Source: Octopus vulgaris
Taxonomy: Eukaryota
Direction: 5' to 3'
NCBI GenBank assembly: GCA_951406725.2
Contig: OX597831.1
Coordinates: 6,014,001 to 6,078,000, forward strand
Length of the DNA: 64,000 bases
This document shows, piece by piece, positions 10,163 to 51,750 of the stretch. A program made the translations under genes and the position numbers. The stretch's first letter is position 1. Every line of letters begins with the position of its first letter. The notes under the pieces are model-generated. The model was not told the DNA's origin. It saw nothing but the letters and a program-made list of their open reading frames with translations, and did not search any database.

Positions 10163-10790
10163 AGGCACAGGAGTGTGTGTGGTAAGAAGCTTGCTTACCA
10201 ACCACATGGTTCCGGGTTCAGTCCCACTGTGTGGCACCTTGGGCAAGTGCCCTTCACTTTCGCCACGGGCCAACCAAAGCCTTGTGAGTGGACTTGATAG
10301 ACAGAAACTGAAAAAAGCCCATATATATATGTATGTATGTATATATATATATATATATATATATATATAAGGGGAAAGTTTACGAAAATAAACAAAAGAC
10401 GAAGGCAGGTGGAGTACAAACAAACAAATGTATTAGTATAGCGCTCAGGAATAGAAAAAGTCTTTTACGTTTCGAGCCTATGCTTTTCGACAGAAAGATA
10501 CACAGAAAAGAAACAAGGAAGGAAAAAATGCATGTAGGAGCTAACGATCTATATATATATATATATGTATGTATGTATGCATTTGAGTCTGTGTTTGTCC
10601 CCCCACCATCGCTTGACAACTTATGTTGGTGTGATTATGTCCCCATCACTTAGCAGTTCAGCAAAAAGAGACCGATAGAATAAGTACTAGGCTTACAAAG
10701 AATAAGTGCTGGGGTCGATTTGTTTGACTAAAGGTGGTGTTCCAGCATGGCCACAGTCAAATGACTGAAACAAGTAAAAGAAAAGAATAA
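10163..10790 (+). mobile_element. SINE family B with an H2 element inserted in its internal (TA)n
   Basis: B 5' half at 10163-10320 and B 3' half at ~10580-10790, separated by (TA)n, H2 and (TA)n. Confidence 0.88.
10371..10550 (-). mobile_element. H2 non-autonomous hammerhead-bearing element
   Basis: Minus strand 10461-10498 reads TCTTT CTGTCGA A AAGC ATAG GCTC GAAA CG TA AAAGA; flanked by (TA)n. Confidence 0.75.
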
Positions 10791-11749
10791 AAGATGGCAC
10801 GGGGGCCAGTCAGGCAGGACCTCGCTCGAATCTTTTTACATGTGCCGGTGGCATGTGTAAAAAGATCCGAGCGAGGTCATTGCCAGTATCACCTGACTGG
10901 CTCCCGTGCCGGTGGCACGTAAAAGCACCCACTACATCCTCAGAGTAGTTGGCATTAGTGAGGGCATCCAGCTGTAGAAACTCTGCCAGATCAGATTGAG
11001 CCTGGTGCAACCATCTGGTTCACCAGTCCTCAGTCAAACCGTCCAGCCCATACCAGCATGGAAAACAGACGTTAAACAACGACGACGAGGAAATGATATA
11101 TATATATATATATATATATATATATATATGTATATGTATGTATATCGATAGATACATACATACATACATAAACAGACGGACAGACAGATAGATAGATACG
11201 TGGTGGGTGTTGACTCATCAGACAAGACCATCGATGACAAGTTAACTTATTTGTTTTGTCAGTGACCATGACAAAATGGATATTCAAAGCCAGAATATGA
11301 CTTGCATTTTTTTTTAAATATTCATAATCATGAGTTACAATTAGTTACTCATTCTGCACAACACCTTGATCGTTTACTTTTATGCACCTTTTGAGTCAAG
11401 ATTGGCTGGAAAATACCTTGCCACAGTAAATCACATGTCAACAAGAAGATAGATAGAAAGATAGATAGATAGATAGATAGACAGATAGATAAAAAGATAG
11501 ATAGATAGATAGATAGATAGATAGATAGATAGATAGATAGATAGATAAAAAGATAGATAGATAGATAGACAGACAGATAGATAGAATAGATAGATAGATA
11601 GATAGAGATATACAACCAGTCATCCATCCGCATACATACACACAATCACATATATTCATATATAGATAACTACAGATACATACACATACATACATACATA
11701 AATACATACATACATGCATACACACACACACACACACACACATATATAT

Positions 11750-11920
11750 ATACAGAAAAACAAAAGACAAAGGCAGGTGTATGAACAACAAACAGGTGTA
11801 TGAACAACAAGCAGGTGTATTAGCTTGACGCTTGGGTGAGAAAGTCTTTTATATTTTGAGCCTATGCTCTTCAACAGAAAGGAATATGAGGAAAAAACAG
11901 GGAGTGAGAAAATCAAAGGG
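11750..11920 (-). mobile_element. H2 element, degenerate
   Basis: Minus strand 11845-11882 reads CCTTT CTGTTGA A GAGC ATAG GCTC AAAA TA TA AAAGA (G12 lost). Confidence 0.65.
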
Positions 11921-12169
11921 GCATAAATGGCATACTCCGAATGAATAAAAAGGTGATGTGATACAATGGTAGAGAGAAATCCAAGAATAAGGTATTCCAA
12001 AACAGTCGGAAGGACAGGACTGGTCCATGTGAACATGTAGTAAACTGTTAATTCAAATAAACAACAATTAAAACAGAAAAGAAGAAAAAAACGAATGTAA
12101 AGATGTATATACATTTATATATATATATGCATGTGGGTGTGTATATATATATATATATATATATATATA

Positions 12170-12573
12170 TATTCTTTTATTTGTTTCAGTCATTTGACTG
12201 TGGCCATGCTGGGGCACGACCTTTACTCAAACAAATCAACCCCAGGACTTATTCTATCGTTCTCTTTGCTGAACTACTAAGTTACAGGGATGTAAGTACA
12301 CCAACATCGGTTGTCAAGCAATGATGGGAGACAAACACAGACACACAAATACATACATGCACACACACACACGTATATATATATATATATATATATATAT
12401 ATATATATATATACACAACAGGCTTCTTTCAGTTTTCCATCTACAAAATCCACTCACAAGGCTTTAGTCAGCCCAGGGCTGCAGTAGAAGACACTTGCCC
12501 AAGGTGCCATACAATGGGACTGAACCCAGAATCATGTTGTTGGGAAGCAAGCTTCTTACCATACAGCCACTCT
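12170..12573 (-). mobile_element. SINE family B
   Basis: Reverse complement of the B consensus with a small internal deletion. Confidence 0.88.
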
Positions 12574-12947
12574 TACACCATGGTCGATACCAGTGTTGCA
12601 TAACCATCCCATTTAAAAGTACCCTTGAACCACCAGGCAACATGCTGTGCTTGAGAAGACCTGTTGAGTCAAGGGAAATTGTAATAGTGGCCGATGCCAG
12701 TGCCACCTGACTGGCACATAAAAAGCACCATTCAAGCGTGGGTCAATGCCAGTGCTGCCTGACTCACTTCCATGCTGGTGGCACATAAATAGCACCCACT
12801 ACACTCTTGGAGTGGTTGGTGTAACAAAGGGCATCCAGCTGTAGAAACCTTGTGAGATCAGATTGGAGCTGGTGCAGCCAACTGGCATGCTAGTCCTCTG
12901 TCAAACCGTCCAACCCATACCGACATGGAAAATGGATGTTAAACAAT

Positions 12948-48984: not shown

Positions 48985-50030
48985 GCTTTAAAAGTTCTAT
49001 AAAGGCAACAACATAAAGGAAAGTGCAAGGAAGATTAATGCAGTATACGGGGATCAGACAATAAGTGTAAGCCAGTGTCAACGGTGGTTCCAGAAATTCC
49101 GAGCTGGAAACTACAGTCTTGTCCTGGAAGATCTGTAAAGCTTGACAAGGATGTCCTGCAAACCCTGGTGGAACAAAATCCCATCGTAACTGTTGAGGAA
49201 CTTACAGAGAAGCTTGGATTTGGTCATTCAACCATTCATTGACACCATTCATGCCATCGGAAAAGTCAGCAAATTGGGTCAATGGGTTCTTCACAAACTT
49301 TCTAAGTTTAATCACGTGCAGAAAGTGAATGTGTGCTCTTCTTTGCCGTCATGTCTTTCAAATGAACACTTTTGGACCGATCAGTGACTGGTGTCGAGAG
49401 ACGGGTTCAAGAATGTCAAGTGCTGAAGATAGTGGGTGGAGAAAGGAGAAGCACTGTCACCCCAGGCTAAAGAAGGTCTTCACCCACATAAAGTGTTGTT
49501 ATCTTTTTGGTGGGATATGATAAGTTTAGTCCACTTTGAACTTTTAAACTCAAATCAAACGATAACAAAGGAGATCTACTGCAAGCAGCTTACACGGCTT
49601 AAGTCAGTGCTAGAAGAAAAGCGACCATCCTTGGTTTCAAGACGAATGGTGTTCTTCTATCAGGGTAACACTTGGTCACATTCAGCAAGGATCACATTCC
49701 AAAGGCTGGAGGAGTTTGAATGAGAAATGATGCCCCACCCTCCATATTTGCCAGACATTGTCCCGTCTGATTATCATTTATTCTGCACTCTTCAAAATCA
49801 TTTGGATGGAAAAAATATGAATTCTGTAGATGAGGTGAGAACAGTACTGGAGGAGTATTTTTCGTCACAGACAAGTGAATTTTGGAAGAGGGGCCTTGCA
49901 AGCCTACAAGATAGATGGAAGAGCATTGTAGAAAATGAAGGAGTGTATATTTTAGATTAAAAATGAAATTTGTTTATCTTAATTTTGAAAAATAAAAGAG
50001 GTATAAAAAAGACTGCATCATGTATAGGAT
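48985..50030 (+). mobile_element. Mariner (DD34D) transposase remnant
   Basis: GQWVLHKL, LHPHKVLLSFWWD, FYQGNTWSHSA and PHPPYLPDIVPSDYHLF..ENEGVY; frameshifts and stops. Confidence 0.88.
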
Positions 50031-51317
50031 GATCCAATATATATATATATATATGGTATGTATGTATGTATATTTTTTGCATGTTTATTCCTAACTAACA
50101 CTTCTTTTGATGCTGTTGACACCACCAAATTGAATGGTACTGCCCAGGTGTCAAAACCATAATGATATCGATGGGGCAGCTGATGATGGAGGTAAACTGG
50201 ATTGTTGGTATGGCTGTTTTTGCATATGTGGAACAGTGTTATAACACATTCTTTTGATATATATATATATATATATATCATCATCATCATCATCGTCATC
50301 ATTATTTTAATGTCCATGTCATGTTCCATGGGGGTATGGGTTAGGAGAATGTTTTAATATTTATTAATAATCATTTCTCATATATCTCTATACAAGTCCC
50401 TTATGATTTATTTTCAACAATGCCGTCATTATCCCACAAAGCCCATTCTCTCCAACCTAATTCCATAGTTTATTCCACAGGTGTTTAGTGCTGTGTTTTA
50501 TTTGTACATCGCTATTAATAAATCTTCTATAACCAATACATCACCATCACCATCATCATCGTGATCATCAGTATTGTCATCGACATCATCATCATTTTCA
50601 TCATCATCATCATCATCATCATCATCATCATCATCACTTAACATCTGTTTTCCATGCTGGCATGGGTTGGACGGTTTGACGGGAGCCGGCAAGCCAGAAG
50701 ACTGCACCATGCTTCACTCTATGTTTTGGCATGGGTTTTACTTGTTGCTGAAATGAGTGGATCAACAGGAATTCCATTTCATCCCCGTAACTTAGTGGTT
50801 CGGCAAAAGAGACCGATAGAATAAGTACTAGGCTTACAAAGAATGAATCCTGGGGTCGATTTGTTCGTCTAACGGTGGTGCTCCAGCATGGCCGCAGTCA
50901 AATGACTGAAAGAAATAAAAGAGTAAAAGAGTAACATGTCTGAATCAGCCATAATGAACCTCAATTAATTTATTTCTTCAGGTAAACACCACACCTGGAA
51001 CCTTCCCCATGCTGGATCTGGAACTTACAGCGCATCTTGAAACTACGAGCTGGCATGCATGTCTATAATTTCATATGCATGCTTATATGAATGTGTATAT
51101 TGATTTATTAATGTGCATGTATATGTAAGTGTTAGGACATGTCTCTGTATGCATTGATGTATGCATAAGTGTCAGGATAGGGTATATACACAGATATGTT
51201 AATCTCAACACTGACTTGTTGCTTTATTATCAATATACACACACACACACACACACACATATATATATATATATATATATATATATATATATATATATAT
51301 ATATATATATATATATA

Positions 51318-51532
51318 CTTTATTTAAAGCAGCAGAAAATTCAACAAAATCTGTTACTCTGAGTTTCTCGTTGCCGTTCATCAGACAGTTTTTGCTATGA
51401 ACGGCAATGAGAAACTCAGAGTAACAGATTTTGTTGAATTTTCTGCTGCTTTAAATAAAGCATATTACTCTACCACTGGTATTTGAGTACTCTTTTTTTC
51501 CACCTTGTTTCACATTTATGTGTTTACTCCGG
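51318..51532. mobile_element. H3 inverted-repeat element, second copy
   Basis: Minus-strand HHR at 51351-51388 reads CTGT CTGATGA A CG GCAA CG A GAAA CTCAGAG TA ACAG (canonical core). The plus arm is 5'-truncated at 51397; same 3' extension as the 17086 copy; in (TA)n. Confidence 0.8.
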
Positions 51533-51629
51533 TATATATATATATATATATATTGATAATAAGGCAACAAATCAGTGTTGAGATTAGCAGATGCTATATG
51601 GTGATGATGACGATGATGATGATGACAAG

Positions 51630-51750
51630 TGTTCCTTTCTGTCGAAGAGCATATGCTCGAAATGTAAAATGCTTTCTCACTTCCTGAGTGTTAAACTAAT
51701 ACATCTGTTTGTCTTCGTCTTTTGTTTTTTTTTTTTTGTAAACTCTCACT
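51630..51750 (+). mobile_element. H2 element, truncated
   Basis: 51636-51669 reads TTT CTGTCGA A GAGC ATAT GCTC GAAA TG TA AAA. Confidence 0.7.

Follow-up and report, generated by a model that had tools for sequence, protein, structure and literature searches.

The subject of this study is a 64,000-nt stretch of the Octopus vulgaris genome (contig OX597831.1 of assembly GCA_951406725.2, forward-strand positions 6,014,001 to 6,078,000; hereafter the window) that carries six small hammerhead ribozyme motifs. In the hammerhead core C3-U4-G5-A6-N7-G8-A9, A6 is near-universal and N7 is free; all six motifs have U at position 6. They are the 3' ends of 5'-truncated copies of a Penelope-like element (PLE), a retroelement with the Neptune/Nematis layout, and each truncated repeat has (TA)n at its end. 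As judged from sequence, the motif is a real A6U variant within the known minimal PLE hammerhead kind, and we lean towards the view that it is a slowed hammerhead, likely assisted by protein, in an autonomous element that amplified recently.

Six motifs in truncated repeats

From 5' to 3' the motif consists of a 5-bp stem I, CUGUNGA, one additional A, stem II GAGC/GCUC closed by a 4-nt loop, GAAA, CGU, H and the returning side of stem I. An initial annotation of the window had listed six such cores with their loops and their UA or UU cleavage sites, and all of them were recovered, on both strands (Table 1). N7 takes all four bases among the six copies, and stem II (GAGC/GCTC) is undamaged in five, as the annotation had also said, the exception being copy 10493 with AAGC. 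Some damage had escaped it: copy 11877 lacks G12 (G12A) and also both bases of the helix III CG, and in each of copies 32444 and 51639 one base of that CG is gone. Hence 38727 is the sole window copy undamaged throughout; its predicted scissile bond lies after position 38754.

Table 1. PLE-derived features of the window, with core, C3 position and loop II of each hammerhead
Feature	Positions	Strand	Hammerhead	Core (C3 position)	Loop II	Remarks
Truncated copy, N7=C subfamily	10361..10547	-	10461-10498	CTGTCGA (10493)	ATAG	Stem II damaged (G10.1A)
Old truncated copy	11748..11913	-	11845-11882	CTGTTGA (11877)	ATAG	U6/U7; G12 lost through CpG-type decay
Truncated copy, N7=G/U17 subfamily	32320..32484	-	32412-32449	CTGTGGA (32444)	GCAG	
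PLE 3' end (pseudo-LTR tail), youngest subfamily	38653..38866	+				214 nt 100% identical to 3' end of full-length L249
Intact U6 hammerhead	38722-38759	+	38722-38759	CTGTTGA (38727)	GTAG	Stem I 38722-26 / 38755-59; U6 at 38730
Truncated copy, N7=A subfamily	40473..40639	-	40572-40609	CTGTAGA (40604)	GTAG	
Sister-lineage copy	43303..43399	-		CCGACGA (43392)	3 nt	A6 but U4C
Tail-only copy of U6 family	44134..44229	+				Hammerhead gone
Old U6-family fragment	44301..44379	+				Hammerhead 3' half and some tail
Old truncated copy, N7=C	51629..51753	+	51634-51671	CTGTCGA (51639)	ATAT	

An autonomous carrier and its copies

At locus L249 the element forms a unit of ~4.48 kb with an intact frame of 1,082 aa from an ATG, and the frames in L253 and L254 are unbroken as well. 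This one frame joins reverse transcriptase (RT; DKG at residue 376, YIDD at 618) to a GIY-YIG endonuclease at the C terminus (EN; GIY-YIG at 874), the arrangement of a canonical EN+ PLE (single frame, RT with DKG and YxDD, C-terminal GIY-YIG with CCHH). PF00078 is matched at 31.9 bits, above its cut-off, and PF01541 at E 0.006, under its cut-off. Ahead of GIY-YIG stands a CX4CX2C linker (CSRPRCRTC at residue 836) of the CX2-5CxxC type, a Neptune feature shared with Nematis. The hammerhead lies ~0.5 kb behind the end of the frame. The best-matching database proteins share only 43-59% identity, and most of them lack names; placement in Neptune or Nematis fits, the clade being judged by layout. 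Beyond the endonuclease, the frame continues for ~120 low-complexity Pro/Ser/Leu residues (L249:6890-7581), and its length and stop vary among copies.

The element appears to have been active very recently. A query of 157 aa covering linker and EN gave at least 150 scored matches, all 100% identical; CTGTTGA lies downstream in all 30 linker/EN loci that were fetched, ~1.0-1.1 kb behind the GIY-YIG motif, and 25 of these 30 young loci are identical over 42 nt. Since the stretch at 38653-38866 matches the L249 3' end without a difference, the frames are unbroken and the linker/EN stretches are identical, U6 belongs to a very young autonomous element and not to decayed debris. Five partial tandems have hammerheads 4,470-4,491 bp apart, one per unit end, and inverted pairs (L158, L159, L151) are found, as is 5' truncation. 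When tandem units were compared as a test for a circular template, the partner units took ranks 1-6 among 38 in five young tandems, copies from other loci being equally close. At L157 (7705 and 9256) the tandem units come from two subfamilies, ~15% apart over 1.4 kb, with a young copy directly behind an older one.

The 2.8-Gb genome holds 23,923 exact matches to the motif and none to the reversed control, so its occurrence is not due to chance. Of these matches, 22,663 (94.7%) have U at position 6; among 100 of the 1,260 non-U6 matches listed, C was counted by hand in 69, A in 26 and G in 5. In copies chosen independently of the ribozyme, U6 stands in 89 of 90; this set combines unselected stretches with tail-anchored loci, out of 213 profile matches spanning the ribozyme and enough tail, and its coverage filter dropped shorter matches, including window copy 11877. 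With the core left free, 85 of the 100 matches listed had the complete U6 core, and the sole recurrent second change was the CpG change G12A. The initial annotation was thus right to call U6 fixed in the lineage, and with more than 22,000 copies and young, near-identical full-length elements its description of a successful natural variant is borne out.

It had also predicted that canonical searches would miss the motif. This is so for CUGANGA descriptors: a minimal-hammerhead descriptor found 25 motifs in 464 kb of unselected DNA, with 0-1 in each of 10 shuffles, and these were 15 U6, 6 canonical, 3 C4 and 1 A4. As a property specific to U6 the prediction fails, because Rfam, which has no match for a U6 copy at E up to 10, gives none for two canonical A6 minimal hammerheads either. 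A Rfam scan of the whole window gave microsatellite look-alikes among the matches listed (150 of 222).

How did U6 arise? The C6 copies, spread over several subfamilies, look like later transitions, and some of the A6 copies make up an old group that has a distinct tail. From copy age, from the sister lineage described below (A6 in 98 of 100 matches listed) and from published representatives (A6 in 56 of 56), we infer that U6 was derived from A6 in an old source element. In a tree made for a single origin of U6 and rooted on the distant sister, the root fell mid-ladder and the A6 copies stayed unresolved (67 rows chosen from ~200). Over the observed divergence a neutral single site would have a 70-78% chance of staying as it was, roughly three in four, so that U6 may be called kept or tolerated in the lineage, and its fixation does not speak for selection on U6 itself.

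Constraint between subfamilies

The copies form a ladder of subfamilies. N7 in the 90 copies chosen independently of the ribozyme is U in 34, A in 25, C in 19 and G in 12, and H17 is A in 67, U in 21, G in one and a gap in one. Genome-wide, 14,534 of 14,780 matches have A or U at H17 and 246 have C or G, the G17 share being ~0.7% (from G in 42 of 100 of the latter listed, by hand count); the sites GUA and GUU agree with the triplet rule NUH, H17 not being G (PMC11014351). Clusters built from non-ribozyme columns predict N7 (164 copies; chi2 242 vs at most 42 in 2,000 permutations), and the order of states from the oldest to the youngest cluster is U or C, G, A, C, U at N7 and A, U, A, U at H17. 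N7 is therefore a real source-level variable, as had been proposed. CpG decay, which would have spoken against that proposal, was considered as the cause of N7 variation and rejected, since A and G make up 37 of the 90 and N7 tracks clusters that are defined by the tail.

Loop II is not such a variable. The initial annotation had read its variation as a sign of selection in the source elements, a reading we had to abandon: loop II is GTAG in every subfamily and cluster, and ATAG, GCAG and ATAT are per-copy decay after insertion, mainly at CpG (L2.1, a CpG site, has decayed in 12 of 84). Stem II is invariant, and a compensatory form GAAC/GTTC has 10 matches genome-wide, too few to count as covariation.

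The excess conservation of the remaining core on which the annotation's proposal depended is found between subfamilies. In the 117 of 169 family copies not chosen by ribozyme, clustered on non-ribozyme columns, none of the 10 invariant core columns changed between subfamilies, and none of the 25 columns of core, stem II, loop II and helix III, vs 24-26 of 71-79 gap-free tail columns (Fisher p ~0.024 for the core and 0.0002 for the 25 columns, at four cluster numbers). An earlier version with 164 clustered copies had 22 of 82 tail columns changed and gave p 0.055 and 0.0013 (U6 clusters). These tests assume independence of columns, and choosing loci by tail anchors favours conserved tails. Between C3 and H17 only N7 and H17 change, the two free positions of a hammerhead. 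The time covered is considerable, with synonymous divergence from the youngest frame of 0.10, 0.29-0.37 and 0.54-0.56 in successively older copies (single copies, uncorrected), the second range separating the youngest from the N7=G subfamily and the third from A6 copies. Because 24-26 of 71-79 tail columns changed and none of the 25, we conclude that the hammerhead shape is under constraint.

These comparisons bear directly on the possibility that the motif is a dead relic on a successful master element, or has a DNA-level role as promoter or endonuclease site, N7 and H17 changing by drift. In its favour, no more than 10 columns enter the test of the core by itself (p 0.023-0.055), a pseudo-long terminal repeat (pseudo-LTR) may contain a promoter, according to the reported work (PMC6765202), and non-CpG decay within clusters is similar in core and tail (1.2% in other core columns vs 2.0% in the unchanged tail, CpG columns decaying at 6.9%). 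However, equal decay per copy after insertion is expected under any model. We had rejected per-copy conservation as a test, since copies decay neutrally once inserted. No change in 25 columns at a synonymous divergence of ~0.3 has a chance of ~0.002 to 0.0001 for p 0.22-0.30, and the changes that did occur land exactly on N7 and H17. We consider a relic or DNA-level role improbable.

A sister lineage with a 3-nt loop II is found in the window (Table 1) and in L189-L218 and has 10,105 exact matches genome-wide. Among 100 of these matches listed, the core has U4C in 65 and U4 in 33. Within it, a subfamily with tail marks in common (L199, L257-L275) has G17, and thus a GUG site, in 200 exact matches, with U4 in 89 of 100 listed. 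No reading frame adjoining a sister (C4 or G17) hammerhead was present in the fetched loci. U6 or C4 cores account for 18 of the 25 motifs in the unselected 464-kb sample. U6, C4 and G17, three changes that are known or expected to make hammerheads slower, each became a source element, and this argues against an efficient ribozyme and for a low catalytic demand.

The window also contains other repeats. A second, unrelated family of minimal hammerheads at 26684(+), 28486(+) and 26314(-) combines the canonical core CTGATGA with a stem II of greater length and is inserted at (TAA)n/(AAC)n repeats. Repeats of 100-250 nt resembling short interspersed nuclear elements are abundant beside microsatellites throughout (e.g. 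8949-9047; families D11-D20), and C2H2 zinc-finger-like repeats were seen as linker-like sequence at 2527-2714 and as a 427-aa zinc-finger frame in the neighbouring locus L042.

Cleavage, template RNA and known systems

The ends of the inserted copies provide information on their templates. In 28 of 30 young copies an exact tail-end motif lies 101-102 nt past H17 and is followed by TA-rich sequence, at a point where the full element continues TTATATATT. In L249 this internal patch is at 3700-3720; the copies stop there, ~103-111 nt past the cut site, and the patch matches the (TA)n targets. This suggests, from the sequence of the ends, a priming by microhomology of the patch on a (TA)n target, unlike the priming of the anole element discussed below. 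No near-complete copy is interrupted at the cut site, and as copies extend ~102 nt beyond the scissile bond, we take the RNA that was reverse-transcribed to have been continuous there.

For the RNA itself, the predicted fold of 38716-38765 has stem I of 5 bp and stem II of 4 bp around the core and is no better than shuffles (z -1.2). In the prediction U6 pairs with A15.1 and closes U4-U7 on A14-G16.2, giving an inactive monomer rod. The predicted cost of opening it has a median of 2.5 kcal/mol in 95 U6 copies vs 0.9 in 6 A6 copies. In published work a natural A6C hammerhead cleaves at <0.1 per min and a natural variant with U4C, although slow in vitro, suffices in a viroid (both PMC3088659), and all changes in the CUGA turn, single or double, are reported to leave low activity except for a C3-G8 swap (PMC9901934). 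Minimal PLE hammerheads are described as inactive as monomers and slow as dimers, even with A6 (PMC4209133), and the anole PLE hammerhead as cleaving only with its protein (PMC11167929).

On balance these data incline us to the view that the U6 motif is a slowed hammerhead, likely assisted by the protein of its autonomous PLE. It would cut only as a dimer or with the aid of the element's own protein, the U6-A15.1 pairing closing the monomer into the inactive rod, most firmly when N7 is U. The templates of inserted copies would be RNA that is uncut or re-ligated at the site, and priming may use the TTATATATT patch against the nicked (TA)n target. Because inserted copies are made from RNA continuous across the cut site, slow cutting would cost little and might even preserve templates. 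The other core bases would remain constrained since occasional cleavage would still be needed, possibly to free the unit from a host or tandem transcript.

Several points weigh against this reading. No cleavage was observed, the material covered being contigs, in which RNA ends do not show. Sequence alone cannot separate a slowed ribozyme from a kept non-cutting fold, and conservation does not help, because the catalytic G8 and G12 are also structural. The predicted opening cost is modest, 0.8-2.6 kcal/mol by N7 class and 0.8-0.9 when N7 is A or C. The sister lineage apparently amplified with a site outside NUH. The direction from A6 to U6 leans on copy age and relatives, with an unresolved root. 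As reported for the anole PLE, dead hammerhead mutants still insert in vitro, and there were no RNA-seq reads ending at the site (PMC11167929). The 'working ribozyme' of the initial annotation is accordingly unproven: the sister lineage amplified even with G17, and A6 changes are reported to slow cleavage strongly.

A competing view, which we regard as less probable although it deserves serious attention, is that the hammerhead fold was retained as a structural or protein-binding element and cleavage is dispensable, U6, C4 and G17 being crippling but harmless. Three different rate-lowering changes reached source status across two sister lineages, position 17 is A, U and G at source level over both as if unconstrained, and loop II is so invariant in the U6 lineage as a bound surface might be. 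The near-complete copies, all continuous across the cut site, are also in line with it, as are the insertion in vitro of catalytic mutants of the anole element (PMC11167929) and the reported proliferation of Naiads without canonical hammerheads (PMC8557442). On the other hand, H17 in the U6 lineage flips several times, A and U being the only states involved. With 200 vs 10,105 matches the G17 stage is a small one, and younger-looking sister subfamilies have again U or A, in a weak tree. Nor do two of the crippling changes ever occur together at source level among the 100 free-core matches listed.

Could U6 instead be fully compensated by its context, through dimer geometry, the extra A9.1, the GUAG loop or metal preference, so that the motif is an efficient ribozyme with a new core? 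The youngest and most intact elements do carry U6, and A6C is reported to retain good activity in Mn2+ (PMC7151607), so conditions can rescue position 6. However, a complete pairwise scan, performed on a type III construct, is reported to contain no second-site rescue of CUGA-turn changes (PMC9901934); stem II, loop and A9.1 are the same in A6 and U6 copies, no change accompanying U6; and the minimal PLE hammerheads are described as slow even with A6 (PMC4209133). Full compensation is thus quite unlikely.

More tentatively, the lineages might have been selected for a throttled ribozyme, with A6U here and U4C or G17 in the sister as independent brakes that would leave sufficient uncut RNA for reverse transcription, the element's protein releasing cleavage on demand. 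If so, the unusually frequent swaps at N7 and H17, of which one lineage shows at least 4 and 3, would adjust the brake finely, and CUGANGA searches would overlook most hammerheads of the genome, these being non-canonical (19 of 25 in the unselected sample). In PLEs the hammerhead is almost universal, although it is slow in vitro and not needed for insertion in the one reconstituted system. The related natural A6, U6, C4 and G17 lineages, one of them with intact, near-identical full-length copies, could serve as a series for studying how much cleavage is needed. A natural A6U would extend the known core variants, and the majority of a genome's hammerheads can escape a count made with descriptors.

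Lunse et al. 2017 is reportedly the largest survey of variants among PLE hammerheads. In the literature searched we found no natural A6U hammerhead, although the tables of that survey and Perreault Figs S6-S7 could contain U6; a search for A6U with hammerhead returned only a twister paper, and CUGUNGA spellings gave nothing relevant among the matches listed (25 of 56). Apart from A6, the octopus motif has the hammerhead core at all positions, including G12, A13, A14 and A15.1-U16.1. It also has A9.1, the G-C pair, CG within ACGU (15.2-16.2), no real helix III and a pseudo-LTR location. It therefore closely resembles the minimal type I hammerheads of metazoan PLEs described before (Cervera and de la Pena 2014, PMC4209133), with their location in the pseudo-LTR, a short stem I, one additional nucleotide between 9 and 10.1, G10.1-C11.1, palindromic ACGU replacing helix III and U-rich 5' side, as well as their thousands of solo truncated copies and partial tandems. 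It differs in that all 56 representatives in Fig. S3 of that paper are A6, whereas here U6 is the majority in a young autonomous family; U3-A8 is the only core variant that paper is seen to report, and the octopus stem II is only 4 bp long. The hammerhead of phage Bcep176 likewise has a natural position-6 substitution in an otherwise standard core (Perreault 2011, PMC3088659; Naghdi 2020, PMC7151607), but this is C and not U, in a single phage sequence and not in more than 22,000 copies of an animal retroelement, and its activity has been measured (slow in Mg2+, good in Mn2+), whereas the octopus motif is known from sequence.

Among whole elements, the Anolis Poseidon element PAc (Frangieh 2024, PMC11167929) is similar in being a PLE with C-terminal GIY-YIG, a pseudo-LTR hammerhead and copies that end internally downstream of the cut. 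Its hammerhead overlaps the start codon, whereas the octopus hammerhead lies ~730 nt before the ATG of the next unit; its RT start is not homologous to the target, whereas in the octopus element the copies stop on a TATATA patch inside the unit, which matches the (TA)n target; and its core is not described as a variant. In its layout the octopus element matches the Neptune and Nematis clades (Craig 2021, PMC8557442). What is new compared with all of these, on the evidence of the copies themselves, is a real A6U variant within a known kind of minimal PLE hammerhead.

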